From contig JBAZFU010000001.1 in the NCBI GenBank assembly GCA_041653195.1, positions 415-64,414 of the forward strand: a stretch of 64,000 bases of DNA, written 5' to 3'. Of this stretch, positions 23,133-61,505 are shown one piece after another. The first letter of the stretch is position 1, and every line of letters begins with the position of its first letter. Position numbers and translations under genes: made by a program. The stretch is from an archaeon (lineage in GTDB: Archaea > Iainarchaeota > Iainarchaeia > Iainarchaeales > JAAZKV01). The notes beneath the pieces are model-generated. The model ran no database searches, was not told the origin of the DNA, and was given only the letters and a program-made list of their open reading frames with translations.

Positions 23133-24374
23133 ATGAAGCAGATAGAGGAGATTTCAAGTTCGGACCTTGCAGTTTTCAGAAAAAAACTAAAAATGCTTGA
23201 AAAGTTCAAGGGAAAAAACACAGAACTAATCACACAATACATACCAGAAGCTGCCGACAGGAGTTCAGTAATGAACCAGCTCACGGAAGAAATAAGCCAG
23301 AGCTCAAACATAAAAAGCCCCACAACAAGAAAAAATGTTCAGGGCGCATTACGCAAAATAACTACTTTTTTAAAAAAAATAAATTTCAATATCCCAAAAA
23401 ATGGAATAGTTGTTTTCGCAGGAAACGTTTCTCCCGTGGAAGGAAGAAGCGACATAAGATTATTCACAGTAAACCCTGTAAAAAATTTAAAAGTAAAACT
23501 TTACTGGTGCGACTCTGAATTTCATTTGGACTATTTGAAAGAAATGCTCGCGCCAAATGATTTCTACGCAATAGTGACAATAGATAAAAACGAAGCAACA
23601 ATTGCACAGCTCTACGGAAAAAAATACGAAATACTCGGCCACTTCACATCAATGGTGCCGGGAAAAACGAGAGCAGGCGGACAAAGTGCACAGAGATTCG
23701 AAAGGCTGAGGGAAGAGGCAACACAGGACTTCTTCAAAAAAATAAGCGAAAAAATAAACTCCTATTTCGCTAACTATGGAGACAAACTGAAAGGAATGAT
23801 AATAGGGGGCCCGGGAATAACAAAAAATTATTTCATAAACAAAGGGCTAATACATCATGAAATATCGAAAAAAATAATCGGCGTGCTTGACATTTCTTAC
23901 ACGGACGAATCCGGAATAAGAGAAATGGTTCAAAAAAGCGAAGAACTTTTGAAAGATACCGACTTGATGAAAGAAAAAATTGTGATGGACAAGTTTTTAG
24001 GCGAAGTGGCAAGAAACGGGCTTGCAACCTACGGCCAAAAAGAAGTTGAAGACGTTATCGAAAGCGGAAAAGCATCCGTTTTACTGATTTCGGAAGCGAT
24101 TGAATGGATGGTTGTGAAAAAACTGTGCGGGAAATGCAACTCTGAAGAAATAGAAATAATAAAAACCCAAAAAGATTATGAAGAATCAAAATGGCAATGC
24201 TCAAAATGCGACGCAACCGGCGAAATAGTTGAAGAAGTGGATTATATGGATTATATGCTGGAAAAGGCAAAGAGCATAGGTGCAGAGGTAATAGTAGTAA
24301 GTACGGAAACTGCGGAAGGAAAACAATTTTATGATGGGTTCGGCGGCTTGGCGGCAATGCTTCGCTACAAATAA
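23133..24374 (+). CDS. prf1: Peptide chain release factor aRF1
   Basis: NIKS motif (SSNIKSP), GGQ motif (AGGQSAQRF) and a C-terminal Cys-rich insert. The track ORF starts at GTG 23124. Confidence 0.9.
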   Translation: MKQIEEISSSDLAVFRKKLKMLEKFKGKNTELITQYIPEAADRSSVMNQLTEEISQSSNIKSPTTRKNVQGALRKITTFLKKINFNIPKNGIVVFAGNVSPVEGRSDIRLFTVNPVKNLKVKLYWCDSEFHLDYLKEMLAPNDFYAIVTIDKNEATIAQLYGKKYEILGHFTSMVPGKTRAGGQSAQRFERLREEATQDFFKKISEKINSYFANYGDKLKGMIIGGPGITKNYFINKGLIHHEISKKIIGVLDISYTDESGIREMVQKSEELLKDTDLMKEKIVMDKFLGEVARNGLATYGQKEVEDVIESGKASVLLISEAIEWMVVKKLCGKCNSEEIEIIKTQKDYEESKWQCSKCDATGEIVEEVDYMDYMLEKAKSIGAEVIVVSTETAEGKQFYDGFGGLAAMLRYK

Positions 24375-24416
24375 TAAATTTAAATTAACTTGAAAACTAA
24401 AAACAAACTGATTTTT

Positions 24417-25682
24417 ATGGAGCCGATTTTTGTAACAACAACCGAAGCGCTCGGCGGAAAAATAAAACAACGCTACTCAGACTTTATCGTGGAAGAAGTT
24501 TTAATAGACGGAAGAATTTGCCAAGTCAAAAAATTTGACAAAGCATTCGGCGAAAGAAAGGAAGAACTCGAAAAAATAATTGTTCCGGCATCAAACGGAA
24601 AGGAACAACTTCTTCTTGATTTGGAAAAAATAAATCAGGACACAAATTTCGTTTTTGCAAGACTCGCACGAGGTCTTAATGTCAGCAAAAAAAGAATAGG
24701 CTACGCGGGATTGAAAGACAAAAGAGGAATAACCTGCCAAAGAATAAGTCTTTACGGCCCAGACCCAAAAAGAGTCGAAAGATTCGGTTTCAGAGGAATC
24801 GAATTAAGAAATCCTGAATGGAGCGACAAAAGAATCGAACTGGGCGAACTGAAAGGAAACAATTTTGTTTTAACAATAAGAGGAATCGAAAAAAGCGAGG
24901 ACGAAATAAAAAAAATAATTTCCGAATTCGCGGAGCAGGCAAAAGAAGGGTTGCCGAATTTTTTCGGAAACCAGCGCTTCGGAGGAAAAAGAGAAATAAC
25001 TCACAGAGTGGGGAAACTTCTTCTCGCCGAAAAATTTGAAGAAGCTGTAATGCTTTATTTAACCGAAACTTACTCTGAAGAAAAAGAAGAGCTTAGGAAT
25101 GCGCGCATTAATTTAGCAAACACAAATAATTTTTCGGACGCACTTAAACAATTTCCCTTTCTTGATGCAAGATCCGAAATCGCAATGTTGAATCATCTTG
25201 TGAACAACCCAAAGGACTTTGCCGGCGCATTCGGAAAGCTTCCAAAAAAAATACGTTATCTGTTCGTGCACGCTTATCAAAGCCACATTTTTAATAAAAT
25301 AATTGAGGAAAGACTACTTCAATTCGGAAAAAAAGGACTCGATGTAATTGAGGGGGACGAATTAATTGAAGGAGAACCTGCCGCACTTCTCCCAGGTTTT
25401 GAAAGCAAATTTGCAGAAGGAAAAGCGGGCGAAATTGAACAAAAAATACTTGCAGACGAAGGAGTTGATTTCAGGACTTTCAGAGTTGGCGGAATGAGCG
25501 AGCTTTCAAGTAAGGGAAGCAGGAAAAATATTGTACTGCGACCCGAAAATTTTAATTTGATTGAAACAGGGGCGGACGAATTCAACGAAGGGAAAAGGTT
25601 TGCAAAAGTCTCATTCTTCCTAAGCAAAGGAAACTACGCAACGACAATTATGCGCGAATTATTAAAAGAAGAAATTTTTTAA
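24417..25682 (+). CDS. truD: tRNA pseudouridine synthase TruD/Pus7 family
   Basis: GGKIKQRYSDFIVEEV N-terminus, catalytic GYAGLKDKRGIT and FGNQRFG. The track ORF starts at TTG 24390. Confidence 0.85.
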   Translation: MEPIFVTTTEALGGKIKQRYSDFIVEEVLIDGRICQVKKFDKAFGERKEELEKIIVPASNGKEQLLLDLEKINQDTNFVFARLARGLNVSKKRIGYAGLKDKRGITCQRISLYGPDPKRVERFGFRGIELRNPEWSDKRIELGELKGNNFVLTIRGIEKSEDEIKKIISEFAEQAKEGLPNFFGNQRFGGKREITHRVGKLLLAEKFEEAVMLYLTETYSEEKEELRNARINLANTNNFSDALKQFPFLDARSEIAMLNHLVNNPKDFAGAFGKLPKKIRYLFVHAYQSHIFNKIIEERLLQFGKKGLDVIEGDELIEGEPAALLPGFESKFAEGKAGEIEQKILADEGVDFRTFRVGGMSELSSKGSRKNIVLRPENFNLIETGADEFNEGKRFAKVSFFLSKGNYATTIMRELLKEEIF

Positions 25683-25687
25683 ATTTC

Positions 25688-26977
25688 CTAATCTATCCAA
25701 GGACCCGAAACATACTGCTTCATAGGAGGCAGACATTTTTCAAATTTTATTATTATACAATCTTGGGTTGTTATTATCTGCGCATTCGGAATATTCAAAT
25801 CATAAGAATATTCTCGGTAAAGCACAATATTTGTTTCCGATTCAACAAGCCTATTGAAATCCCCTTCCCAACCGACCTGTTCGGCAACTATTCCTTTTGG
25901 ATAAAAATAAACCCAATTATCGCTTCCGACTCTGCAATTTCTAATAAAATCATTTTCCGGAATGCGGGGCGAATAATTATTGATTCTTATCCCTGTTTGA
26001 AAAAAAGCAACCAAAAAAATAGATAAAAACAACAGCGCCACAAAAAAAACTTTTATTTTTTTATTGCCAAAACTCGCGCGCGCCGCATTAACCGCCTGAG
26101 ACGGCACGAGAACATTAAGAAACCTGCTTTCTTTTATTCCAGAAAAAACGAACTGCACAACAGAAATAAAAGAAACCTGGTTTTTTTCATCAAGAAAATT
26201 TTTCTTAACATTTAGGAACACTGTTGCAATGAAAAAAACAATAAGCAAAACAAAACCAACGCCTATTTCAGAAGCGACACCTCTTGTAAAAACATTTATG
26301 TAAAGCGTCTGATTGAGACTGAAAAACGGGTTGCCCGTGTGCACAAAATTAAAGGCAAGCCACGGCAACCAAACGAGAGAAAAAATCCCTAAAAAAAGCA
26401 AAATTTTTTTTGGGTTTCTGCGAAACTGCCACAAAAACACAGGAAAGTAAAACAAAAAATTATAACGCGACAAAGTCGCAAGCCCGAAGAAAAAACCTTT
26501 TTTGAGGGGATTTGAAAAAAAGAGCGCAAGCAAAAGAAATGAAAGAGCAAAAAGATCAGACCCGTAATTGGCCCCGATAAGAATTGTCGGAAAAACAAAT
26601 GCGAATAATGCAAAAACAAACTGGTCAATTTTTCCGTTTTCTTTTTTATAAATCAAAAAAATTGCTGCGAGGTAAATGAATGATGCAAACACCGTGGAAA
26701 AAAACGCCGAATTCATTTCAGCTCCAAAAAGACAATTAAAAAAACCCGGAACAGGCGGCCTTAGATACTCAAGGTACAGGTGCTGCCCGCAGAACCACTT
26801 CCCCTGAAAAACGTATGTTATAGAGTCCCATTCTGAAAGTGTTGCCTGATAAGCCTGAAAAACCAAAAAAATTGAAAAAAAAATAAAAACCCATTTAAAT
26901 TCAAGGATTTTTTTAATTGGTTTCGCAACGCCAACAGAAAAAACATTTTTTTTATTTAAAAAAAGAGGCTGGGCCAC
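25688..26977 (-). CDS. Polytopic membrane protein, GT-C-like glycosyltransferase candidate
   Basis: About 10 TM helices. The first loop has an acidic SEWDSITY motif and LRPPVPGF, reminiscent of the ArnT/PMT-type DExxY...PPL pattern. The C-terminal soluble domain is ~100 aa. The call is weak. Confidence 0.45.
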   Translation of the reverse strand: MAQPLFLNKKNVFSVGVAKPIKKILEFKWVFIFFSIFLVFQAYQATLSEWDSITYVFQGKWFCGQHLYLEYLRPPVPGFFNCLFGAEMNSAFFSTVFASFIYLAAIFLIYKKENGKIDQFVFALFAFVFPTILIGANYGSDLFALSFLLLALFFSNPLKKGFFFGLATLSRYNFLFYFPVFLWQFRRNPKKILLFLGIFSLVWLPWLAFNFVHTGNPFFSLNQTLYINVFTRGVASEIGVGFVLLIVFFIATVFLNVKKNFLDEKNQVSFISVVQFVFSGIKESRFLNVLVPSQAVNAARASFGNKKIKVFFVALLFLSIFLVAFFQTGIRINNYSPRIPENDFIRNCRVGSDNWVYFYPKGIVAEQVGWEGDFNRLVESETNIVLYREYSYDLNIPNAQIITTQDCIIIKFEKCLPPMKQYVSGPWID

Positions 26978-26987
26978 TGCAGTCCCC

Positions 26988-27629
26988 TCATTTGCATCTG
27001 AGTTCGTTCAGAAGCGTTTCATTTGTCTGGAGAGAATCAAATTTCTTGTCATTAATAACTATCGTTCCCGCTTTCGTAATATTATATTGTTTTTCAAGTA
27101 TGCTTGTAAACTTATAGTCCGGCCAATTGTACGGAAATGCAAAAACACCTGCGCCAGGGCATAATTGTTTTATTTGGTCTAGCTGATTAGCTATTGCTCC
27201 GCATTCAACATCGCACGAATTATCCTCTGCATAAAAATAAAGAATCGGCTTTATATCCAAATTACAGTCTGCAACAGCCTTCTTGACCCTGCTGTAAAGC
27301 AAAAGATTGTTTATCAAATAATTTTTTTTCGCAACAGTATATTCCTGCGAAACCATTGACTCTTTGTAACTTTTCAATCTTAGCTCAAGTTTTGACAAAG
27401 TATCGCTTATATTCGCAATATTATCTTCTATAAAATAGCAATAATAATTAGAATCAGAAGCGGATAATTCCGAATAAACTTTGTCGAGCTGGCTCTCAAA
27501 CGCAATTTGATTTAGTTCCTCGTTCACCTGGTAAAAGCGCGCATCTTCAAAAGCTTTGACGCTAAAGAAGGCAACCGAAAAAATAGCAAGTGTTGCGACA
27601 AACGCAATCAAGTAGACACTCTTACCCAT
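26988..27629 (-). CDS. Membrane-anchored extracytoplasmic protein, thioredoxin-like C-terminal region
   Basis: N-terminal TM anchor, then ILYFYAEDNSCDVECGAIANQL (CxxxC) and KAGTIVINDKKF, consistent with a Trx-like fold. Its start overlaps the upstream GT2 gene by 22 nt. Confidence 0.4.
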   Translation of the reverse strand: MGKSVYLIAFVATLAIFSVAFFSVKAFEDARFYQVNEELNQIAFESQLDKVYSELSASDSNYYCYFIEDNIANISDTLSKLELRLKSYKESMVSQEYTVAKKNYLINNLLLYSRVKKAVADCNLDIKPILYFYAEDNSCDVECGAIANQLDQIKQLCPGAGVFAFPYNWPDYKFTSILEKQYNITKAGTIVINDKKFDSLQTNETLLNELRCK

Positions 27630-28936
27630 TTCGATTTCACCCCCGCCATTTCTTTTAAATAACTCTGAAAATAAACCGTGCTAACGAAGAACGGGTAAAG
27701 TAAAATGTTTATTAATATAACCAGCCAATCAAAATTCTTTGTTTTGTAACCAATAAGCTTAAGGCTGAAATAAGTAAAAAGCAAAATAAGCAAATAAGAA
27801 AAAACAAAAAATATTGCTGTTGAAGGCACAATAATTTCTTTTACAAAAAATCCAAACGAGTTTGTCAATCCAAAAACAGTTGTCTCGATTGCAAAAAAAT
27901 TAAAAACCGTGTTTGCAAACAAAACGATTGTTCTGAAAAGAAGCAAAACCGACGATATTTCAAGTGCGAAAAGGTACGGAAGTGCGAAAAATCCCAAATC
28001 AGAATTTTTTTTGTTGAAAAATAGCGATTTGTATTTAATCAAATTAAAAATTCTGCCCCTGTACCACCTATCCCTTTGCTTGAACAATTTTTTCCAAGTA
28101 TCAGGTATATCCGTGAAAGCTTTTGCTTCAAAACAAACCATTATTTTGTAAGAATGCTTTTGAAGCCTCAACGCGATTTCCATATCCTCAGTTAAATTTC
28201 CAGGGTCATAGCCGCCGATTTCATCAAAAGCTTTTTTTCGAAACACTGTCAGAGGGCCAGGTATCATAGTCATAGAATTTATTGAAGATAATATTGTGGT
28301 CCAAAAGCCAAAGCCTATCGCATACTCAAAAAATTGAAGCCTTTGAATCAGAGACTGAACCTTATCCGGCAGAATCAATCCGGTCACTGCGCCAACCCGC
28401 GCATCCTCAAAATAACCCATTGTTTTTAGCAAAACGTCGTTCTCCGGATAGGTGTCAGAGTCTATGCAGGCAACAAAATCGGTTTTAACAAATTCCAATC
28501 CCTTGTTTAGCGCGATTGCTTTCCCTGAATTTTTTTTCAATTTTATAAGTTTAATCCCTTTTAATTTTTCCAAATATTCTCTGGAACCATCGGTGCTGCC
28601 GTCATCAACAACAATTATTTCAATTTTTTTCGGATATTTTATTTTTTTTATTGCCGCCATGCATTTTCCAATAGTTTTTATAGAATTATAAACCGGGACA
28701 ATTATTGAAACCGAAGGATATTTTTTAATCAGCTTAGCTTTGCCGTAATCCCCTCTTTCCAAATAAAGAAGCAGGAACAAAATGAGCACGAATAAAAGAA
28801 AAAAATTAACAAAAACAATCGTATAAAAAAACGGCAAAAAAAAGCTGAATATTAAAAGCCCGACAGACACTGCGCTTAGGAAAAAAAGTATCGCTTTTTC
28901 TAACATATTTAGGGAACTCATTTCCATTTCCATCAA
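27608..28936 (-). CDS. Membrane-integrated processive family-2 glycosyltransferase (chitin/PNAG/cellulose-synthase-like)
   Basis: VSIIVPVYNS, VVDDGSTDGS, IDSDT, LTEDMEIALR and the processivity signature QRDRWYRG (QxxRW). It has 2 N-terminal and ~4 C-terminal TM helices. Confidence 0.8.
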   Translation of the reverse strand: MMEMEMSSLNMLEKAILFFLSAVSVGLLIFSFFLPFFYTIVFVNFFLLFVLILFLLLYLERGDYGKAKLIKKYPSVSIIVPVYNSIKTIGKCMAAIKKIKYPKKIEIIVVDDGSTDGSREYLEKLKGIKLIKLKKNSGKAIALNKGLEFVKTDFVACIDSDTYPENDVLLKTMGYFEDARVGAVTGLILPDKVQSLIQRLQFFEYAIGFGFWTTILSSINSMTMIPGPLTVFRKKAFDEIGGYDPGNLTEDMEIALRLQKHSYKIMVCFEAKAFTDIPDTWKKLFKQRDRWYRGRIFNLIKYKSLFFNKKNSDLGFFALPYLFALEISSVLLLFRTIVLFANTVFNFFAIETTVFGLTNSFGFFVKEIIVPSTAIFFVFSYLLILLFTYFSLKLIGYKTKNFDWLVILINILLYPFFVSTVYFQSYLKEMAGVKSKWVRVST

Positions 28937-52176: not shown

Positions 52177-52339
52177 AAAACCCGCGCTCTCGTTCCCTTC
52201 AATACAATATAATAGCCAAGTGTAATTTAAAGGTGCCTGAAAAAAAGCTCAAAAAACAGCAAAAGAACGAAAAAATAAAAAAAATACGAAAAACATGTCC
52301 GAAAAAGGTTATTTAATACTTAAGAACAAAATATTGATT

Positions 52340-53137
52340 ATGAAAAAAGCTTTCATACTGCCGATTGCATTGATTCTATTCTTTCTAATTGTTCCAGTTT
52401 ATGCGCAGGAATATGAAATAGGCACTCATGAAGTAAGAATACAAGTTGATTCAAACGGAAATGCTTCCGCTACAGAAAGATTTTACCTTAATTTTCCAAA
52501 TGAAACCGAAAGAGCCTCGTTTAGAACAACAAGCACACAACTCGGCTCTGACATGGACAAATGGCTGCAATTCAACTCAAAATTTCAGCCAAACATAAAA
52601 AATCCGAATGCTAAAGACGGCGGAATTTCAAATAAAAAAATTTATTACAACGAAGGCCAAGACACCTATCTTGAAATAAGTTATAATCTAGACGACCCTC
52701 TAATGGCAAAACTTAACGAGACTCCTACCGGAAGCGAATTCGCACTAAAAGCTATTTTTCTCAACAATTTTTTCGAATTCGGACTATGGGTAATTCCCGA
52801 CAATACAAAAATAATAATTGAATTACCTCTAGAAGCAGAAGTAAGAGAACCTGTAGAACCAGCGGCAGTAGTTTCGCAAATCGGTTCAAAAAAAGTTGTT
52901 CAATGGGAAGGATACAAAAGCGGAAACAACCTAGAACTGAGATATGTCCTTTGGAAGCAAATAGCAATAGACTTTAACCTTTTCACAACACTTAACAACC
53001 TAATTTTCACAGAAACAGGAATTTCAATTATAATAATCGTGGCAATAATAATTGGCGCGATTTTTTATTCAAGAAAAAAAATATCCCAAAAAGTAGAGGA
53101 TTTTGTCGCCGACAATTCAAAACTCGAAGACGACTAA
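52340..53137 (+). CDS. Secreted protein with a C-terminal TM anchor, function unknown
   Basis: Signal peptide MKKAFILPIALILFFLIVPVYA, a C-terminal TM helix and an acidic tail. The track ORF starts upstream at 52295. Confidence 0.5.
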   Translation: MKKAFILPIALILFFLIVPVYAQEYEIGTHEVRIQVDSNGNASATERFYLNFPNETERASFRTTSTQLGSDMDKWLQFNSKFQPNIKNPNAKDGGISNKKIYYNEGQDTYLEISYNLDDPLMAKLNETPTGSEFALKAIFLNNFFEFGLWVIPDNTKIIIELPLEAEVREPVEPAAVVSQIGSKKVVQWEGYKSGNNLELRYVLWKQIAIDFNLFTTLNNLIFTETGISIIIIVAIIIGAIFYSRKKISQKVEDFVADNSKLEDD

Positions 53138-53167: not shown

Positions 53168-54463
53168 TTACTCCGAAAAATTTGAATTAATCCTTGCTAC
53201 CACATTCTCTTTAGAAATCAATTCAGAAGCCGCAATCAAATCTTTTACTTTCTTTGAATCCTTTTTCGCCGAAAGCAATTCGGCTAATTCCTTCTCATCA
53301 AAACCGAAAAAATGAACCATTGGCGGCGCAACAGACTTATTCTCAAGCATTAATTTGAAAAAAGGCAAGTCCTTCATCGCCTGACGGCGGGAACAATGAG
53401 TTCCCTTCCCTATTTTCGCAGCAACATTTTTGCGAGCTTCTCTGCCGGCGGTGCTCGCTGAAAGCGAACCAAGCAAAGAAGGAAACTGAAAAGGAATCCA
53501 TCCGTAATATTCTTTAGTTCTTGAAAGGCCAACACCAGCAGTTGCAAGCAAACTCGAATAACGAAGGAAACCGTAATTCTGACGCCTAAAAATTCTGCCG
53601 TTAAAAACATCGGCTCGGCTAAGCTTGTCGAAAGCAACTGCAGAATCCTTTGGATCGAACTGGCGCGGAATATTCTCTTCCATCCAGCGAAAAAGCATTT
53701 CGCCGGAAACCTCTGAATCGAAAGTCGCCCCTTGAATTTCTTTCACAGAATTTCCTTTGAAAATTTTTGTCATTATTGAAAATATTTTTTCTTTGCGTTC
53801 ACGCGGAAAAAGCGCTTTCACTTTTTCAATAGTAACTGACGGCGCCAAACTTTCAAGATCAATGATTGCACTCCTAAAATCCCCTGCAGAATTTTTGGCC
53901 AATTCCTTTACAGCCTCGTCTTCAAAATCTATTCTTTCAAGTGCTGCTATTTCCCTCAGGCGTTTCGCAATACTAAAATAATTAATTTTTTTGAATTCTT
54001 TTAATTCAGCAAGCGTACGAAGAGGCACAAGTTTTTTATCGGAATAAATATTATTAGCTGTTAGAATTACCGGATTGCTTGACTCTTTTATTATTCGCAT
54101 TATTGCTTCGGCTCCGCCCCTGTCAACGGACTGTAGACCATCAACTTCATCAATCAAAATAAGGCGTCTGCCGCCGAAAAGCGAGGCGTTTGCAACAGCC
54201 GCACCCATCACTTTTTCGATTTCATCCTTGGATCTGAAATCAGAGGCATTTGTTTCGAACAACTGCCAGCCGAACTGCTTTGCGATCAAAAAAGCGAGAC
54301 AAGTTTTTCCCGCGCCGGTTTGCCCGAAAAAAAGAAGCGGCTTCTGCCTCTCGCCCTTCTGCCACTTTTCGGCCCACTTTCTCGCATCATCAACGATTTC
54401 GGAATTTCCTATGAATTCCTCAAAGTTTTTCGGAAAATATTTGTCAATAAGCAGGAGCGTCAT
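53168..54463 (-). CDS. rfcL: Replication factor C large subunit
   Basis: LIDKYFPKNFEEFIGN, Walker A GQTGAGKT and Walker B LILIDEVDGL. At 431 aa with a basic C-terminal region it fits RfcL. Confidence 0.85.
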   Translation of the reverse strand: MTLLLIDKYFPKNFEEFIGNSEIVDDARKWAEKWQKGERQKPLLFFGQTGAGKTCLAFLIAKQFGWQLFETNASDFRSKDEIEKVMGAAVANASLFGGRRLILIDEVDGLQSVDRGGAEAIMRIIKESSNPVILTANNIYSDKKLVPLRTLAELKEFKKINYFSIAKRLREIAALERIDFEDEAVKELAKNSAGDFRSAIIDLESLAPSVTIEKVKALFPRERKEKIFSIMTKIFKGNSVKEIQGATFDSEVSGEMLFRWMEENIPRQFDPKDSAVAFDKLSRADVFNGRIFRRQNYGFLRYSSLLATAGVGLSRTKEYYGWIPFQFPSLLGSLSASTAGREARKNVAAKIGKGTHCSRRQAMKDLPFFKLMLENKSVAPPMVHFFGFDEKELAELLSAKKDSKKVKDLIAASELISKENVVARINSNFSE

Positions 54464-54522: not shown

Positions 54523-55719
54523 ATGCAGATAGGAATAGTGGGAAAGCCGTCGAGCGGAAAAAGCACCTTCTTCAGCGCCGCAACACTCATAGACGTTGCA
54601 ATAGCAAGCTACCCATTCACCACAATAAACCCTAACAAAGGAATGGGTTTCGTGCGCGTGGAAGACGCTGGAAAATTTTTCGGAGTCCAAAGCAATCCGC
54701 GATACGGATTTGTAGTCGATTATGTGCGATATGTTCCGATTGAGTTGGTCGACGTTGCAGGATTGGTGCCGGGCGCGAATGAAGGAAGAGGACTTGGAAA
54801 CAAATTCCTCAACGATTTGAGCCAGGCGGATGCCCTTGTGCACGTTGTTGATGCCTCGGGAAGCACGGACGCGGAGGGAAAAACCGTTGCGGAAGGAAGC
54901 CACGATCCGTGCGAAGACGTTTCGTTCCTTGAAAAGGAAATCGATCTGTGGTTTTTGAAAATACTTGAAAACAACCTGCCGAAAGTGGCTAGAAACCCTG
55001 AAAAGGATCCAAGAAAAAGAATCGCGCTGCTTGCACAACATCTTGCAGGAGTAAAAATACTTTCGCCGCACGTGGAAAAAGCTTTGAAAATGCTTGAAAT
55101 AGAAGAAAAGAGGTTTGACGAGTGGAGTGAAGAGGACAAAAAAAACTTTGCAACAAAATGCAGGGAACTCAGCAAGCCCATAATAATCGCGGCGAACAAG
55201 TGCGACCTGCCGTCAGCCGAAAAAAATATTCAGCGCATGAGGGAAAAATTTCCTGGACAGATGATTGTGCCCTGTTCTGCGGCAAGCGAACTATCACTCA
55301 GAAAGGCGGCGAAACAAAAAATTTTGACTTATTATCCGGGGCAGAAGAATTTCGAAATAACCGGACAGATAAACGAAAAACAAAAAGACGGACTCGAAAT
55401 TATTCGAAAAAATGTTTTGGAAAAATTCGGCGGAACCGGTGTGCAAGATTGCCTCGACAAAACAGTTTTCGATTTCCTAAAATACATCTACGTTTTTCCT
55501 GGCGGAACAAAGGGGCTCGTCGATAAGGAAGGAAGAACGCTTCCGGATTGTTTCCTCATGCCCCATGAATCCAGAGCAATTGATTTCGCGTACGCGCTCC
55601 ATACGGATATGGGCGAAGGGTTCATCCGTGCGATTGACGTTAAAACAAAACAGGTTGTTGGAAAAGAGCACTTGCTCAAAGCCGGCGACGTCGTTGAAAT
55701 AGTTTTTAAGAAAAAATAA
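54523..55719 (+). CDS. Obg-family GTPase (YchF/DRG-like) with a C-terminal TGS domain
   Basis: G1 GKPSSGKST, G3 DVAGLV, G4 NKCD and a TGS-like C-terminus ending GDVVEIVFKK. Confidence 0.8.
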   Translation: MQIGIVGKPSSGKSTFFSAATLIDVAIASYPFTTINPNKGMGFVRVEDAGKFFGVQSNPRYGFVVDYVRYVPIELVDVAGLVPGANEGRGLGNKFLNDLSQADALVHVVDASGSTDAEGKTVAEGSHDPCEDVSFLEKEIDLWFLKILENNLPKVARNPEKDPRKRIALLAQHLAGVKILSPHVEKALKMLEIEEKRFDEWSEEDKKNFATKCRELSKPIIIAANKCDLPSAEKNIQRMREKFPGQMIVPCSAASELSLRKAAKQKILTYYPGQKNFEITGQINEKQKDGLEIIRKNVLEKFGGTGVQDCLDKTVFDFLKYIYVFPGGTKGLVDKEGRTLPDCFLMPHESRAIDFAYALHTDMGEGFIRAIDVKTKQVVGKEHLLKAGDVVEIVFKKK

Positions 55720-55767
55720 AGTCTAAAAAAACTAATACGAAAAGGCTGCCAAAAAAAATGGCTTAAA

Positions 55768-56160
55768 TTATTTTTCCTCTTCGATTATCTCAGTAATCGT
55801 TTTAGATTTCACAGGCGCATTTTCCGAAGGAGGTGCGACCGCCGAAGAAGTTGTTTCCTCAACAATCTCAGTCCTCTTAACAGTTGTTCCCTGAACGGGT
55901 GCAGACGAAACCTCCGAAGCGAACTTTTCAGCGCCAACAACTTCTTTGCAGGCAATACTGTTTTGTTCTTCGATTATTTTCCTTTCAAACTTTCTCATCG
56001 AATCATCTTTGTTCTTCAATCTGTTCAATGAATAAAAATACGAATTTATCATTTGATCAAGATCGAGCTGCCTCTTGAAACCAAGACGAGCGATCTCCTC
56101 AAAGTAAAGCCTTACTATCCTAAATGCAACTTCTTCATCCTTCATACCAATCACTTCCAA
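55768..56160 (-). CDS. Small protein sharing a ~45-aa domain with the upstream basic protein
   Basis: TTG start 5 nt after AAGGAG. The N-terminal DEEVAFRIVRLYFEEIARLGFKRQLDLDQMINSYFYSLNRL is paralogous to the C-terminus of 56177..57181. Confidence 0.55.
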   Translation of the reverse strand: MEVIGMKDEEVAFRIVRLYFEEIARLGFKRQLDLDQMINSYFYSLNRLKNKDDSMRKFERKIIEEQNSIACKEVVGAEKFASEVSSAPVQGTTVKRTEIVEETTSSAVAPPSENAPVKSKTITEIIEEEK

Positions 56161-56176
56161 AAAAACTCCTTAAAAA

Positions 56177-57181
56177 TTATTTTCTTATCCTGCTTCGCCT
56201 AACCGCTTCAGCAACGGCAGTCATTTCAATATCCTGCCTTCTAACCCTTGCCAATGCATAAAGGTAAGCGTTAATTATTTCGTCGAGAGTTAGTTGCTTT
56301 TTGAAACCCATCCGCGCAACCTCTTTGAAATAAGTTTGAATTATTTTAAAAGCGATTTCCTCTTCACTCTCGCCCAAAAGCTCTTCCACATCAGTTCTTG
56401 AAACTGATTTTGAACCCGCAGTTGAAACAACAGACTGCATTATCGAACGCATCTGCGCAGGAGTAACCGTTTCAGTCGAAGAAATCATTGTTCGTTTACG
56501 AACACGCGGAACAGAAACCCTTCTGACTATTCTTGAAAATACTTTTTTTCTTTTTCTTTTCGGCTTAACAATAACTTTTCTCGTTCTGTACCTTAATTTT
56601 GTTATTACCTTCGGTTTGCTTCGCCTGTACCTTACTTTAGTAACGACCGTCGGCTTGCTTCTGATTCTTTTTACCACAGTTCTTGTTCTCGTCCTGGTAA
56701 TAACTCTCGGTTTTGATTTTATACGCCTAACCTTAAACACCGTTTTTGTAACAGTCCTTGTTTTTCCTTTTTTTCCGAGTTTGCCAGCCTTCGCGAGTTT
56801 CCAAAGAGCAACAGCCTGCTTGAAAGTTTTTCCCAATCGCATTTGAGAACCGATAAATTGGTTGTAAGCGGAAGGCCTTCTCTTGTCCTTGCTCACAAGC
56901 GCCTTGTATTTGTTCCACTCCTTAACGGCTTTTGCGAAAGTCGCTCCCGCAAGAATCTGCCTCTTGATAAAAAGATTATATTCAGAAACGTGTCTTGAAG
57001 AAAGCTTCTTCGTTTTTTTTAGCTTCTCAATATCAGATTTCAATTTTTCGATTTCCTTTCCCTGCTCGACAGTTTTCTTCTGCGCTTTAACAGCGGCTTT
57101 CTTTGCAGACTTAATGTTTTTCTGCGCCCTAACGGCAGCCTTCTTAACGGACCTAATGTCCTTCCTGCTCTTCTTATCCAT
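56177..57181 (-). CDS. Highly basic repeat protein with two YABBY/HMG-like PSAYNxFI modules (candidate nucleic-acid-binding protein)
   Basis: See findings for details. The repeats were read directly from the translation. The start is ATG 57181 or GTG 57217. Confidence 0.6.
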   Translation of the reverse strand: MDKKSRKDIRSVKKAAVRAQKNIKSAKKAAVKAQKKTVEQGKEIEKLKSDIEKLKKTKKLSSRHVSEYNLFIKRQILAGATFAKAVKEWNKYKALVSKDKRRPSAYNQFIGSQMRLGKTFKQAVALWKLAKAGKLGKKGKTRTVTKTVFKVRRIKSKPRVITRTRTRTVVKRIRSKPTVVTKVRYRRSKPKVITKLRYRTRKVIVKPKRKRKKVFSRIVRRVSVPRVRKRTMISSTETVTPAQMRSIMQSVVSTAGSKSVSRTDVEELLGESEEEIAFKIIQTYFKEVARMGFKKQLTLDEIINAYLYALARVRRQDIEMTAVAEAVRRSRIRK

Positions 57182-57402
57182 AACAGTTTTTTTTACAGCC
57201 AAATAATTCACCCACACAAAAAAACTTTAACTGGGCAAAAAAAGTTGTCGCCCAATAACCTATACCCTACCAAAATAGTATATAAATGTTCCCATTTAAC
57301 GGGAATGCGTGAATTAGAGGTGTTTTTTGTTCAAATCGCCAATAAAAGGCAATATAACGGGTTTATAAGCAATTTAGCGAATAATATGAAACAGTGAATT
57401 TA

Positions 57403-57549
57403 ATGAGCATAAAACCAAAATGCGACAAATGCAAAAAAGAACTGCGCGAATTCGGAGGCATACTTTTGAGCCCGCCGGACAAAAAATCGAAAGTGAAAAA
57501 ACACCATTTGTGCAAAAAATGTTACAAAAAGATCGCGTCCGAACTTTGA
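57403..57549 (+). CDS. 48-aa zinc-ribbon-like protein
   Basis: Below the ORF-track length cutoff. It reads MSIKPKCDKCKKELREFGGILLSPPDKKSKVKKHHLCKKCYKKIASEL, with CxxC...CxxC and AGTGA 7 nt upstream of the ATG. It displaces track ORF 57420..57605. Confidence 0.4.
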   Translation: MSIKPKCDKCKKELREFGGILLSPPDKKSKVKKHHLCKKCYKKIASEL

Positions 57550-57645
57550 AAAATTTCAACCCGCAGATTCAAAACTGCCAATTCAACCTTTCTGACAACA
57601 TTTAAATAGAACGCAATCACAATGTTTTTAGGAGAACGGAAAAAA

Positions 57646-58248
57646 ATGAAAACCCTTAGAAGAAGCGGAAGAATTGCGCGAGGAACGGCAGTAACCGCCG
57701 CAATCCTCGGAATAACGACGCGACCGGCACTTGCCACAAAAACAATCCGCGAACTTGAAAAAAATCGTTTGCCAACCGCGCAACATGCCGAAGTACTTCA
57801 ACACCACCCGGGTTTCGTGAAACTTCTAAATAAACACAAAAAAATTTCTCCGGCACTGGCAAACTCGCTGAACCGCGAATACTGGAAAGCAATCGAAATG
57901 ATTGACGAAACCTACAAGCTTCAACAAACCATTCTTTACATGAAATCAGAAATGACTTTATACAGCGGCAAACAACTCGAACTCATCAAAAAAAAACTGT
58001 CCATATTCATGGAAAAATATGCCAACAAAAGATATGAATTCATAGAAAAAATGGAAAACATTAACGCGTCGCTCGAATTCCCCCAAATTCTGGAAACCAA
58101 AAAAGCGAAATACAAAAAAGAACACGGAAAAGAACCCGCAGGAAAAGAACTGAAAAAAATTATGAAGGAATCTGCAAAAGCCGCAAAAGTAAGGGCACTC
58201 GGCACCGCCGGAATCGAATTCTTTAACCAGGGCGGCCCCTCAAAATAA
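57646..58248 (+). CDS. Hypothetical protein, paralog 1 of a tandem pair
   Basis: AGGAGA lies 10 nt upstream of ATG 57646. It has an N-terminal RRSGRIARGTAVTAAILGI hydrophobic segment, and its C-terminus aligns with the next ORF. Confidence 0.5.
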   Translation: MKTLRRSGRIARGTAVTAAILGITTRPALATKTIRELEKNRLPTAQHAEVLQHHPGFVKLLNKHKKISPALANSLNREYWKAIEMIDETYKLQQTILYMKSEMTLYSGKQLELIKKKLSIFMEKYANKRYEFIEKMENINASLEFPQILETKKAKYKKEHGKEPAGKELKKIMKESAKAAKVRALGTAGIEFFNQGGPSK

Positions 58249-58263
58249 AAATGAAGTGATTTT

Positions 58264-58665
58264 ATGCGAATGAAAGAAAAACTGATAAGGGCAACGGCAA
58301 TTGGCGCAACAGTTGCTTCTGCAGCAGGTGCATTCTGGTTCGGGCAGCGGGCAACGAAACTTGAACAGGAAATTGAACGAAGCCGACCAATAATGAAAGC
58401 GAAACAAAAAGCATATCAAGAAAGAATGAAAATTCTTGAAAAGCCCTACGCCGAAAAAAGAGAATTCCTTATGAGAGAACACCAAAAAAAATATTTCAAA
58501 AAATATTTTAACGAAATAAAACAGGAAAAAATCGCTGAATTCAAAAAAGCAAACGGAAGGGAACCGGACAAAAACAAATTAAAAGAAATAGAAAGATTCG
58601 CAAAAACACAGGCATATGCACTTACGAGAATAGAAGCTGCAGAGCAATTCCCTCCGCCAAATTAA
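58264..58665 (+). CDS. Hypothetical protein, paralog 2 of a tandem pair
   Basis: N-terminal LIRATAIGATVASAAGAFWFG. The C-terminal FKKANGREPDKNKLKEIERFAK aligns with YKKEHGKEPAGKELKKIMKESAK of the previous ORF. Confidence 0.5.
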   Translation: MRMKEKLIRATAIGATVASAAGAFWFGQRATKLEQEIERSRPIMKAKQKAYQERMKILEKPYAEKREFLMREHQKKYFKKYFNEIKQEKIAEFKKANGREPDKNKLKEIERFAKTQAYALTRIEAAEQFPPPN

Positions 58666-58688: not shown

Positions 58689-59762
58689 TCAGACTTGCTT
58701 ACTTTTTGAAATCATTCTGGTAAAACCGCGCCCCTTCGGAACTTTTCTTGTTTTTAAAATCTTTTTGAACTCCAAATCAGAAACCGCTTTTCGAAGAGTG
58801 CGTTCGGCAAATTTTTTGTTCAGCGCTTTGTACACTGCTCCCGCATCCACTTCTTTGCCGCCGACAAAATTCAAAACCAAAAATTCCTGTTCGCTCAAAT
58901 TCTCCGCAATTTCAAACTTCACCGGCTTCTCCTGCATGAAAGAAGCGCGCACATGCTTCAACTGAACCTGCGCCGCGCCTTCTCGTTCAGCAAGACGCGC
59001 AGCTTTCAAAAGAACAGTGATTGCGATTCGGGCATCGCCGCCGTTCTTTGCGGCGTGCGCGGCACACAGCGGAATAACCTCATCTTCGAGCGCGTTTGAA
59101 AAAAAAGCGGAAGATGCTCTTCCTCGCAAAATTTCTTTCAATTCAATTGAAGAATACTTTTCAAATGCAACGTACGAAGCCTGAAGCGAACTTCTCACCC
59201 TCTCGTCCAGAAGCGAAAGAAAAAAAGAATCATTCGAAATGAAAACCATGCCGACAAAAAGCCCCTTGTCCTCGCCCATGCGGGAAAAATCGTAAATAAG
59301 TTTTTTCGAATCATCCGACTTCAACAACTGCTCCGACTCATCAAAAACAATTATTGGAACAATTTTTTTGGAACGAAGCAGGGCAACAAACCGCTCATAA
59401 ACTTCGTCACTGCCTAAACCCCTTTCAGGAACAGGATAGCCGAGCGCATTCGCAATTTTAACAAGAATCCCGCTGCGCGTCGAAGTCTCAAAACAATTCA
59501 CATAAACACACTTCGCCCTGTCGGAAAATTCCTCAAGCTCGTTCAAAACATACTTCAAGGTAACGGTTTTTCCAGAACCAGGGCTTCCGGAAACAAAAAC
59601 ATTTCCGGGCTTTTTTCCCATCGCAGCCGGCTTCAACGAAAAAACAAGCTCGCCGATTTCTTTGTCCCTGAAAGGCAACCTGTCGGGAACAAATTCGGGA
59701 TAAAGGAAACGCTCGTCCTTCAGAATCCCTTCACCGAAAGATTTCTCAAAAGAGTTTGCCAT
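58689..59762 (-). CDS. cdc6: Orc1/Cdc6 replication initiator
   Basis: FVPDRLPFRDKEI, Walker A GSPGSGKT, Walker B IIVFDESEQL and a C-terminal wHTH. ATG 59762 is likely the true start. Confidence 0.9.
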   Translation of the reverse strand: MANSFEKSFGEGILKDERFLYPEFVPDRLPFRDKEIGELVFSLKPAAMGKKPGNVFVSGSPGSGKTVTLKYVLNELEEFSDRAKCVYVNCFETSTRSGILVKIANALGYPVPERGLGSDEVYERFVALLRSKKIVPIIVFDESEQLLKSDDSKKLIYDFSRMGEDKGLFVGMVFISNDSFFLSLLDERVRSSLQASYVAFEKYSSIELKEILRGRASSAFFSNALEDEVIPLCAAHAAKNGGDARIAITVLLKAARLAEREGAAQVQLKHVRASFMQEKPVKFEIAENLSEQEFLVLNFVGGKEVDAGAVYKALNKKFAERTLRKAVSDLEFKKILKTRKVPKGRGFTRMISKSKQV

Positions 59763-59849
59763 AAATAATCGAATAATGCAAAACAATTAAAACTATGCGC
59801 CGCGGTTTGGCAATCAGCTAAAAATTTACCGAAAAACACCCCACTCAAA

Positions 59850-61505
59850 TTAGCACAGCGGAAATTCAAACAAAACAACCGGATTCTTCAAGCCGAAATT
59901 TTGCAAAACATCGGAAGAAACTTCCCCCACAAACCCTGCTTTGCCGTTTACAAGAATCTCTGCAGAATTTTCGCCCATAAAAGAAAAAGCTTTTTTCCTC
60001 AACTCCATCTTAAGCCCCAAATAATTGCAGGCGGAAACAAGCGCCGACTTTATGTCAGTGAAATTCGCTTTGGAAGAAGAAAGCGCTACGCAAAGATTTG
60101 TCGTCTGCCTGACCCCGTTTTCGGAATCTTTGTGCAATTCGAGGCAGGTTCCGATTTCAAAAATTTTTTGCGGATAAGATTCGGACTTATTTTTAGTTAA
60201 AAATTCGAGCAACTGCGGCGACAGCCTTTTGCGCATAATCGAATAATTTTGAGAAATCGGGTTCATTATTTCCACAAAACCCTCATCTGCAAGAAAATTT
60301 TCAGACTGTAATTTTTTAGAAGTCATGTTATACGTAAGAATTTCCTGCAACCCCATTCCGACGCAGGCATCCCTCACCAATTCAAAAAATTCCTCCTCCG
60401 CCCTCTGCGAACCTATAACACTCATTTTTATCGGCTGAGGAACTATTTTGTTGAAACCGTAAGAAATAAGCAAATCTTCTATTACATCAACAGGGTGCAA
60501 AATATCCGCTCTGTAAGAAGAATATTCTACGGAAATTTTTTTGGAATCTATTTTGACATTATAACGGGCGCGCTCAAGAAGCTCTTTTATTTTTAAATCC
60601 CCAAGCTTAAAACCTGTTTTTGTTTCAACCAGCCGCTTTTCAAAAGAAATTTTCTTTGTTAAAAAGCGAGGAGATTCCAAAATACTTTTCGGATAAATTT
60701 TTCCCTTGGGATAATGCATTTTGCAGGAATAAATTTTCCCGCCGCGATCGGCAAGAGCCATGCACATAACCTCAAGCGCAGTTTCGATGGTTTCTATAGA
60801 AAATCCAGTAACTTCCACAAAAAGATTCCTTGTTTTTTCAGTGACTTTGCCAGTGGAATCGGAATTTATTATCGGCGGCATAGAAGCAACAATTTTTTTC
60901 GAATCCATTACAATCGGATAAAATTCGATATTATCAAGCAAGGCCGCATAAGCCTTTCCTTTTTCATGTTGAGACAAAATTTCAGTCGGCCTCATTGGAA
61001 CCTTCCATTCAAGCGGAACAAACTCTATTTCCTTATCCCTAAAACCCCTGTATTCAATAGGCGGATTCATCGCATCAAAATCATAGAGCCCTATTGCAGC
61101 TTCCCTTCTCTTTCTGCCAAAATTTTCACACACTTTTTCCTGCAACTGCACCATCTGCAGCAAAAAATTTTCATTAACAGTTACTCCCCTGACAACCGCG
61201 CACACAATAAACGGGCGGACTTTCTCAAGATTCGAATCAACAAAAACATCTACGCCCATTTTTCCAACTTTGTAAGCGCACAACCCCTTTTCTTTTCCAA
61301 TTCTGGCCTTTATTTCGCGAGCTAACCCTTCGGCGCTCCACAAATCAGGCCGATTAGTCTCCTTACAATCAATTTTGAGAACATCCCCCTCGACGCCGTC
61401 AAGCTCCGACTTTGCAAACTCCAAAAGCTCATCCAAAGATTTCATTGAAATAGTTTTTCCGATAAGTGATTCCAAATCTTTTTTTGAAACTTCAAATTTT
61501 GGCAT
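59850..61505 (-). CDS. pheT: Phenylalanine--tRNA ligase beta subunit (archaeal type)
   Basis: At 551 aa, the N-terminal MPKFEVSKKDLESLIGK plus B3/4 and B5 layout fit archaeal PheT. It is coupled to pheS by a TAATG overlap. Confidence 0.9.
   Translation of the reverse strand: MPKFEVSKKDLESLIGKTISMKSLDELLEFAKSELDGVEGDVLKIDCKETNRPDLWSAEGLAREIKARIGKEKGLCAYKVGKMGVDVFVDSNLEKVRPFIVCAVVRGVTVNENFLLQMVQLQEKVCENFGRKRREAAIGLYDFDAMNPPIEYRGFRDKEIEFVPLEWKVPMRPTEILSQHEKGKAYAALLDNIEFYPIVMDSKKIVASMPPIINSDSTGKVTEKTRNLFVEVTGFSIETIETALEVMCMALADRGGKIYSCKMHYPKGKIYPKSILESPRFLTKKISFEKRLVETKTGFKLGDLKIKELLERARYNVKIDSKKISVEYSSYRADILHPVDVIEDLLISYGFNKIVPQPIKMSVIGSQRAEEEFFELVRDACVGMGLQEILTYNMTSKKLQSENFLADEGFVEIMNPISQNYSIMRKRLSPQLLEFLTKNKSESYPQKIFEIGTCLELHKDSENGVRQTTNLCVALSSSKANFTDIKSALVSACNYLGLKMELRKKAFSFMGENSAEILVNGKAGFVGEVSSDVLQNFGLKNPVVLFEFPLC

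Follow-up and report, generated by a model that had tools for sequence, protein, structure and literature searches.

A conserved gene pair found downstream of orc1/cdc6 in the archaeal class Iainarchaeia encodes a candidate DNA-architectural heterodimer with HMG-box/YABBY-like modules

What is the function of two neighbouring archaeal genes, the first of which encodes a very basic protein with two short modules resembling the YABBY and HMG-box domains, and the second a small protein that repeats the C-terminal domain (CTD) of the first? The question is raised by two open reading frames (ORFs), denoted here ORF1 and ORF2, in a stretch of 64,000 nucleotides from an archaeon of the lineage Iainarchaeota (contig JBAZFU010000001.1 of assembly GCA_041653195.1, positions 415 to 64,414; hereafter, the window). 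Domains of the HMG-box and YABBY types are regarded as features of eukaryotes, and the YABBY domain as one of plants only. An initial annotation made from the sequence of the window had suggested that ORF1 and ORF2 might be an undescribed chromatin or nucleic-acid-binding pair that interacts through the shared domain. Our analysis is computational throughout, and the reading that we favour, with moderate confidence, is that ORF1 and ORF2 form a lineage-specific nucleic-acid-binding, most probably DNA-architectural (nucleoid-associated), heterodimer of the DPANN class Iainarchaeia. The main new finding, which is also the strongest contextual clue and had been missed by the initial annotation, is that, in most related genomes, the pair lies directly downstream of orc1/cdc6.

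Results

A gene pair of one archaeal class, linked to orc1/cdc6

We identified 122 homologues of ORF1 (E ≤ 0.01) and 162 homologues of ORF2. The named sources are Diapherotrites, Iainarchaeum or unassigned archaeal metagenome-assembled genomes (MAGs) of the class Iainarchaeia, and throughout, these proteins are recorded as ‘hypothetical protein’ or are clearly mis-annotated; the phyletic mapping proposed in the initial annotation thus yields homologues that are all unnamed and confined to Iainarchaeia (Diapherotrites) MAGs. Scanning of one genome per GTDB species produced 76 distinct loci, labelled Candidatus Iainarchaeum, Diapherotrites, Forterrea or unassigned archaeon, with three labelled Micrarchaeota, and including the complete genomes CP010424 (AR10) and CP064981. 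Across the family, the order of the parts of ORF1 is kept, namely, the Lys-rich N-terminus, the zipper, the helix-loop-helix (HLH) modules (only one in distant members), the basic tract, the linker and the CTD. The number of homologues and the conservation of module spacing and domain order indicate that ORF1 and ORF2 are a genuine gene pair under selection within a single archaeal class.

The description of the pair as undescribed holds as well: searches of Pfam, NCBIfam, PHROG and PDB sequences with the full-length proteins found no family that claims ORF1 or ORF2, and a search of the literature on archaeal or Diapherotrites HMG/YABBY-like proteins found nothing relevant. Matches to DUF4200, DUF6154, HAUS-augmin3, eL18, TraB and gp39 were non-significant and were dismissed as coiled-coil or composition effects. 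No member of either family was found among the IMG/VR viral contigs and none matched PHROG, and with a fixed chromosomal place between core genes, a viral or mobile origin of the pair was ruled out.

In 68 of the 76 loci, orc1/cdc6 is located upstream of the pair on the same strand (median gap 98 nt; at most 300 nt in 52 loci), and of the eight loci without it, two end at contig edges. This adjacency holds even where the other neighbours, PheT, the GTPase and RFC, are rearranged. The genes that follow orc1/cdc6 vary: in about 45 loci, an ORF1 with two modules and the CTD is followed by an adjacent ORF2, nine loci carry a fusion, about 11 have a single-module ORF1, and about 19 have only a small CTD-only gene, which is nearer in identity to ORF2 than to the CTD of ORF1 and hence is the ORF2 orthologue. 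Given that the CTD-only loci keep the position next to cdc6, the CTD is the element most constantly linked to this gene.

The shared domain and the predicted pairing of ORF1 and ORF2

BLASTP aligned ORF1 and ORF2 with 50% identity over 54 aa (E = 2 × 10−20). The significance of this and the other repeats was assessed by Smith-Waterman comparison against 5000 composition-preserving shuffles, none of which reached any observed repeat score; the ORF1 CTD and the ORF2 N-terminus are identical at 23 of 41 positions (z = 29), which bears out the duplication that the initial annotation had described. A CTD profile retrieved only small proteins of the same lineage and nothing significant when compared to the PDB. 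We found 15 proteins with two tandem CTDs, the first ORF1-like and the second ORF2-like, which are natural fusions of the ORF1 and ORF2 genes; such fused loci number nine among the GTDB genomes. In an AlphaFold2 model of the tandem CTD (121 residues, 14 sequences; pLDDT 83.8, pTM 0.77), which consists of four to five helices, the two copies are predicted to pack as one compact unit, and this compactness supports heterodimerisation of the unfused ORF1/ORF2 pair. The proposed interaction through the shared domain accordingly has predictive backing from the fusions, the model and the adjacency of the two genes in roughly 45 of the 76 genomes. Foldseek comparison of the tandem-CTD model to the PDB and BFVD gave no convincing counterpart (best E 0.25-0.9, TM ≤ 0.4), and the possibility that the CTD is half of a histone fold (helix-strand-helix) was rejected with hhalign probabilities of 0.3-0.5% against archaeal histones for both the CTD and the tandem CTD.

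In ORF2, the shared domain is followed by a helix and then by a linker rich in Thr (median 20%), and the protein ends in a conserved peptide, which reads KTI(T/A)(E/D)I(I/L)E in the clade of the window and is of the ETKEQLFP type in other clades (ETKEQLFPS-like in AR10). This peptide may be a short linear docking motif. An acidic tail like that of HMGB1 was rejected as a general feature of ORF2: the net charge of the tail is −3 in the window and the family median is 0, and the tail is Thr-rich rather than acidic. A second CTD protein of 255 aa, with a long coiled coil and a different C-terminal extension but without the HLH module, is encoded in locus L079 (JAFCEU010000033.1, 5617-6381), the genome of which is also represented by L066, a locus with a CTD-only gene after cdc6; thus, the CTD is also joined to other partners.

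The modules of ORF1 and their relation to YABBY and HMG-box domains

The initial annotation had described the two modules as YABBY/HMG-like. Among Pfam families, YABBY (PF04690) is matched by the most members of the ORF1 family (24 of 33), always below the cut-off (best E = 0.0055); the window ORF1 scores 10.8-11 bits (E 0.6-0.7) against a gathering score of 28.6 bits. The hhalign comparison of the tandem-module alignment to five Arabidopsis YABBY domains gave a probability of 92% (E = 5 × 10−7), with an alignment that spans both helices and a 10-residue gap that falls in the loop. AlphaFold2, the structural check suggested at the outset, modelled each module as a helix-loop-helix with pLDDT >90.

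We further searched 1.84 billion representative proteins exhaustively with HMMER, using a profile made from the archaeal modules alone, and obtained 177 matches at E ≤ 10−3. The 140 listed matches that were new to earlier searches divide into 49 with the CTD, which belong to the family, and 91 without it. True HMG_box proteins were retrieved by this profile at library-wide E values of 10−6 to 10−4. Among the 91, protein P0381 (E = 7 × 10−7) scores 106 bits with HMG_box and 80 bits with YABBY, and Pfam cut-offs are passed by P0395 (YABBY, 35 bits), P0390 (HMG_box_2, 41 bits, and HMG_box, 28 bits), P0436 (HMG_box, 39 bits), P0433 (HMG_box, 26.4 bits) and P0444 (HMG_box_2, 30 bits). The matches form a series of three types, that is, short-loop two-helix modules in proteins that end just past WKxxK, short-loop modules followed by a helix-III-like W..L....K..Y...A segment, and long-loop, NPD-containing boxes of the YABBY/HMG type. 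In four proteins (P0358, P0363, P0368 and P0444), module repeats are found beside topoisomerase C-terminal repeats, evidently a DNA context.

A profile-level link to bona fide HMG-box/YABBY members was thus found, with the signal mainly in helix 1. The YABBY domain itself resembles helices I and II of the HMG box, without helix III (PMC8074164). The modules of ORF1 probably share a remote ancestry with helices I and II of the HMG-box/YABBY superfamily. ORF1 itself is not a member of either the YABBY or the HMG-box family, given its short loop, the absence of both a zinc finger and helix III, and scores that stay below threshold. The likeness noted in the initial annotation holds at the profile level, with the YABBY alignment and P0381 in its support; family membership and an HMG-box fold in Foldseek were not found.

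As a separate observation, the ~31-residue module KRKPSAYNxF(I/V)GxxMKxGK(T/S)MxEAVxxWKxxK was present in ~90 unannotated metagenomic proteins outside the family (P0356-P0478). Many of these are 40-110 aa long, with the module forming the exact end; others have 2-5 repeats, some beside topoisomerase C-terminal repeats or a Rho_N domain. No names are recorded for these proteins, and most have no PHROG or Pfam family. The module looks like an undescribed, widespread mini-domain family.

Layout of ORF1, gene starts and upstream elements

The features of the locus are listed in Table 1; ORF1 alignments and the ORF1 model are numbered from the 334-aa ATG-start protein. The AlphaFold2 model of ORF1 (114-sequence alignment) shows a long N-terminal helix (3-58, pLDDT about 75-95), two HLH units (67-77/82-98 and 105-115/120-131, pLDDT >90), a disordered basic tract (pLDDT mostly <55) and a helical CTD (273-290 and 299-330, pLDDT about 80). 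The zipper residues I44, L47 and L54, located within the predicted N-terminal helix, are invariant or nearly so, and the heptads are presumed to be the dimerisation element of ORF1. The second HLH module (HLH2) starts exactly 38 residues past the start of the first (HLH1) in nearly all homologues with two recognised modules, and the two modules are identical at 14 of 31 positions (z = 10.5); the z values are 6.1 for the N-terminal duplication and 6.3 and 7.7 for the basic repeats. The number of repeats in the basic tract ranges widely across homologues, and the corresponding 39-nt DNA repeat is 81% identical in the window. All of the ORF1 elements described in the initial annotation were recovered where it had placed them, and shuffled controls scored far lower. 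The window ORF1 has a pI of 11.5 (family median 10.65), a net charge of +77, 30% Lys+Arg and zero Cys, and the pI of the window ORF2 is 5.2.

Table 1. Features of the ORF1/ORF2 locus and its neighbourhood (window coordinates)
Feature	Position	Strand	Remark
ORF1	56177..57217	minus	346 aa if GTG start
ORF2	55768..56160	minus	130 aa if TTG start; small partner protein
Duplicated VKKAAVRAQKN / AKKAAVKAQKK, Lys-rich N-terminus of ORF1	57074..57148	minus	N-terminal region length differs among homologues
Leucine-zipper-like heptads EIEKLKSDIEKLKK	57014..57055	minus	conserved; directly ahead of module 1
HLH1 RHVSEYNLFIKRQILAGATFAKAVKEWNKYK	56903..56995	minus	two helices, pLDDT >90
HLH2 RRPSAYNQFIGSQMRLGKTFKQAVALWKLAK	56789..56881	minus	most conserved stretch of the family
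Disordered Lys/Arg/Thr-rich tract	56492..56785	minus	net +42, pI 12, pLDDT <50
Three R(I/R)(K/R)SKPxV(I/V)T(K/R)xR copies	56591-56728	minus	inside basic tract
KPKRKRKK	56543-56566	minus	inside basic tract
Ser/Thr linker	56366..56491	minus	slightly acidic, poorly conserved
CTD, two-helix domain EEIAFKxxQTYFxExARxGFKxxLxLDEIIxAYxYxL + C-terminal helix	56180..56365	minus	paralogous to ORF2 N-terminus
ORF2 N-terminal copy of shared domain DEEVAFRIVRLYFEEIARLGFKRQLDLDQMINSYFYSLNRL	56017..56139	minus	paralogue of ORF1 CTD
ORF2 C-terminal motif KTITEIIEEEK	55771..55803	minus	after Thr-rich linker
TATA box TTTATATA	57279..57286	minus	about 75 nt upstream of TTG start
Dyad element ATTCACGCATTCCCGTTAAATGGGAAC	57288..57314	minus	directly upstream of TATA box
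RFC large subunit	53168-54463	minus	window neighbour
Obg-family (YGR210-like) GTPase with TGS domain	54523-55719	plus	nearest downstream neighbour
Three unassigned ORFs	57394-58665	plus	between ORF1 and orc1/cdc6
orc1/cdc6	58689..59786	minus	same strand as pair
PheT	59850-61505	minus	window neighbour

Both ORFs of the initial annotation are present on the minus strand, and their starts can be narrowed down. Besides GTG 57217, ORF1 could start at TTG 57202 (341 aa) or ATG 57181 (334 aa), and because homologue N-termini read MVxAKTVDKK..., the true start is probably one of the latter two. ORF2 had been placed 16 nt after the ORF1 stop, where a TTG is indeed present; however, nearly all ORF2 homologues begin with M(N/K)DEE, so that the true start is probably ATG 56145 (125 aa), 31 nt past the stop. 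The gap between the two genes holds AAGGAG, which had been taken to favour co-transcription, along with T5 and T7 runs that look like archaeal oligo-T terminators, and because of these accompanying runs, co-transcription is only plausible. Two 31-nt stretches over the stop codons of ORF2 and ORF1 (55746-55776 and 56154-56184), each with the stop followed by T-rich runs, are 71% identical and may be paired oligo-T termination signals, in which case ORF1 and ORF2 may be co-transcribed only in part.

Boxes of the TTTTTATA type are located 35-50 nt upstream of ORF1 in most closer relatives. The dyad element has the family consensus aTT(A/C)ACTnnTTccAGTTAA, is situated 10-15 nt upstream of the ORF1 TATA box, and occurs in 21 loci including the window, L004, L005, L015, L017, L018 and L036; the window copy is a perfect inverted repeat, TTCCC-N7-GGGAA. 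The element could serve as an operator or as an Orc1/Cdc6 initiator site resembling an origin recognition box (ORB-like). A dispersed regulon or origin motif was rejected: the sole other exact match in the window is inside the coding sequence of Lon protease and, for that reason, was taken as chance.

Neighbouring genes and the rest of the window

The three plus-strand ORFs between ORF1 and orc1/cdc6 encode a 51-aa zinc-ribbon-like protein (CxxC...CxxC) and two weak paralogues of 208 and 133 aa (29% identity, E = 10−4). The 208-aa and 133-aa proteins had no Pfam match at E ≤ 0.01, the 51-aa protein had a sub-threshold match to DUF7685 (E = 0.004), and NCBIfam yielded no family for any of the three. 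The closest relative, L004, has only the zinc-ribbon ORF in common with the window, most relatives have a spacer of about 100 nt, and the three ORFs look like a lineage-specific insertion.

On the far side of the RFC large subunit gene, a plus-strand ORF of 280 aa (52295-53137), with N-terminal signal- or transmembrane-like and C-terminal transmembrane segments and no Pfam match, is kept beside that gene in about 25 related loci (41-70% identity). The cumulative GC skew climbs over roughly the first 26 kb of the window and declines steadily over the remainder (feature ~24000-28000), and a G+C low of 0.355-0.359 is found at 26-30 kb, about 30 kb from orc1/cdc6; the turn near 26 kb may be a coding-strand change, or a replication or integration boundary.

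A tblastn search of the window with histone, Alba, Cren7, Sul7d and MC1 queries, which were entered by hand rather than taken from a database, returned nothing below E = 0.4, in agreement with the initial statement that the window has no histone-, Alba- or Cren7-like gene; 64 kb say little on the chromatin genes of the whole genome. Comparison of ORF1 to known archaeal chromatin proteins gave no match in Pfam or NCBIfam.

Discussion

Proposed mechanism and the points that weigh against it

Under the favoured reading, each step of which comes from sequences and models, the zipper at the end of the long N-terminal helix would dimerise ORF1, and the two minimal HLH modules of each chain, related to helices I and II of the HMG box and YABBY and marked by a basic lead-in (K/R-R-P), the S-x-Y-N-x-F motif of helix 1 and the conserved Trp of helix 2, would bind DNA, probably with little sequence specificity. 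The expandable disordered Lys/Arg/Thr tract (net +42) would add non-specific backbone contacts and charge neutralisation. The ORF1 CTD would pair with its paralogue at the ORF2 N-terminus to form a compact helical bundle, thereby bringing in the Thr-rich tail and the C-terminal peptide of ORF2, a possible docking site for another factor, and the resulting multivalent assembly would bend, bridge or coat DNA. The placement in the nucleoid-associated class, which implies low-specificity DNA binding and abundance, is suggested by two features, the pI of 11.5 and the similarity of the modules. Because the pair follows orc1/cdc6 in most genomes and the CTD-only gene keeps this place without the DNA-binding part, the pair may have a role at the replication origin, in its vicinity or alongside the initiator, which is the weakest of our inferences.

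Several observations count against this reading. No member of the ORF1 family reaches the Pfam cut-off of YABBY or HMG_box; the module profile found nothing among PDB sequences; the hhalign probability against eight canonical HMG boxes was 5.5% only, and these boxes, like the five Arabidopsis YABBY domains, were entered by hand rather than taken from curated alignments. Foldseek comparison of the full-length ORF1 model to the PDB gave no match with E <3 and no HMG-box fold, although the two-helix units are too small to decide either way. The similarity sits mostly in the basic lead-in and helix 1 and may therefore reflect convergence on a short motif. With regard to the context, three plus-strand ORFs break the linkage between cdc6 and ORF1 in the window, the TATA boxes point to a promoter of ORF1's own, and the linkage could amount to inherited gene order inside one class. 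The extreme basicity suits RNA binding equally well. Finally, Diapherotrites are reported to encode histones (PMC6136690), so that chromatin need not depend on the pair alone, which would be an additional chromatin component rather than a substitute.

Alternative explanations

The linkage to orc1/cdc6 is central to the alternative under which the CTD core is a partner or regulator of Orc1/Cdc6 or of another replisome-loading component, and ORF1 is a derived paralogue that tethers the CTD to origin DNA, making the pair an origin-specific accessory factor of replication initiation. This we consider unlikely, even with orc1/cdc6 immediately upstream on the same strand in 68 of the 76 genomes, an adjacency that outlasts the rearrangement of other neighbours, and with the about 19 genomes that have only a CTD-only gene, nearer to ORF2 and devoid of the HLH module. 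The conserved C-terminal peptides of ORF2 would also suit docking, and in the complete genome CP064981, the locus is at most 7.5 kb from coordinate 1. However, neither protein is similar to Cdt1/WhiP, GINS, MCM-binding or other known initiation factors; the entire block PheT-cdc6-pair-GTPase-RFC is also syntenic, so that the linkage may be partly inheritance; and a distance of 0.6-3 kb separates the genes in the window, in L004, in L050 and in about ten more loci. The conserved dyad aTT(A/C)ACTnnTTccAGTTAA between cdc6 and ORF1 can be read on either side: it loosely resembles origin recognition boxes, but there is one copy per locus where several are usual at origins, and the second match in the window is in Lon.

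The same dyad, which as an inverted repeat TTAAC-N8-GTTAA precedes the TATA box by 10-15 nt in 21 loci, that of the window among them, would be a candidate for the defined site read by zipper-dimerised modules if ORF1 were a sequence-specific transcription factor, for example, an autoregulator of its own promoter, with ORF2 as co-regulator. The nearest profile similarity, to the DNA-binding domain of the YABBY transcription factors, and the dimerisation zipper directly N-terminal of the modules are compatible with such a role, which nevertheless appears very improbable, given that the net charge (+77) and the basic low-complexity tract (100 residues, with a length that varies) are typical features of non-specific binders, that the modules number one or two and are absent in some lineages, and that nothing ties the dyad to ORF1 over Orc1/Cdc6 or another regulator. 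We give equally little credence to an RNA-binding or ribosome-associated basic protein or chaperone, the repeats and basic helices of which would have RNA, such as rRNA, as their target and would play no part on DNA. The extreme basicity of ORF1 and its disordered repeats (KPK/RTRT), which are like the extensions of ribosomal proteins, would fit it, as would the nearest downstream neighbour, the Obg-family GTPase with its TGS domain, and a weak, non-significant eL18 profile match (E = 0.53); but the GTPase is on the opposite strand and the conserved same-strand partner is orc1/cdc6, no ribosomal or RNA-binding family was matched, and the sole reproducible remote similarity is to the DNA-binding YABBY/HMG modules, together with module repeats fused to topoisomerase repeats.

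A more far-reaching form of the DNA-architectural reading combines two claims, that the ~31-residue module K/R-K/R-x-P-S-A-Y-N-x-F ... G-K-T-F/M ... A-V-x-x-W-K is a prokaryotic and viral, possibly ancestral, branch of the HMG-box/YABBY superfamily, and that Iainarchaeia have made it part of a chromatin organiser with two subunits, which a helical-bundle domain not seen before couples functionally to Orc1/Cdc6 at the replication origin. The conjunction of both seems quite unlikely.

Comparison to known systems

What is new here is the architecture as a whole, along with the CTD bundle, the organisation in two genes and the linkage to cdc6, whereas the DNA-binding module is, distantly, of a known kind. 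Like YABBY (PF04690), the ORF1 modules are two-helix HLH units with a basic lead-in and no helix III (PMC8074164), helix 1 carrying (V/R)PSAYNxFI and helix 2 the conserved A..W, a likeness seen in both the AlphaFold2 model and the hhalign comparison. Unlike YABBY, they have a loop about 10 residues shorter (LGKT compared to IKAxNPDISHREA) and, instead of an N-terminal C2C2 zinc finger (PMC8074164), ORF1 has a Lys-rich N-terminal helix without any Cys; each chain carries two modules, the protein comes from an archaeon rather than a plant, and the zipper, the basic repeats and the CTD are unrelated. With HMG boxes (PF00505/PF09011), ORF1 shares K/R-R-P-x-S-A-Y...F in helix I and Trp in helix II, and like the tandem HMG-box packaging proteins TFAM, Abf2p and the chloroplast HBD1 (PMC8157925, PMC5314765), it carries two modules on a basic protein, with a proposed role in the bending and compaction of a small genome that matches theirs. 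The HMG box, however, is a three-helix L-shaped fold of about 70-80 residues, compared to two helices and about 31 residues in ORF1; ORF1 has no Pfam, PDB-sequence or Foldseek match to HMG, and HMG-box proteins are essentially eukaryotic. The likeness to H-NS-like bridging proteins (PMC6936261) is limited to the general design, in which a helical element for oligomerisation at the N-terminus is joined by a flexible basic linker to a small unit that binds DNA, making a multivalent binder able to bridge DNA; sequence and fold are unrelated, the DNA-binding unit is another one, and the ORF1 CTD and the partner protein have no H-NS counterpart. By position alone, the pair can further be likened to certain genes of another lineage, with nothing that speaks for relatedness: the haloarchaeal ‘oap’ genes beside orc/cdc6, which are uncharacterised and marked mainly by their conserved position next to the initiator.

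In the literature searched, we came across no archaeal protein family with an HMG/YABBY-related module as its basis. If both the homology and the DNA binding are true, the pair would add a new class to the nucleoid proteins of archaea, from the little-studied DPANN group, with a minimal two-helix HMG-type module that would help in thinking about the origin of the three-helix box, and a large uncharacterised domain family could be defined, given the presence of the module in many unannotated metagenomic proteins. Being short and expressible in a heterologous host, the gene pair is testable. The tight, class-wide linkage between the CTD and orc1/cdc6 singles out the CTD as a concrete candidate partner, specific to this lineage, of the replication initiator.

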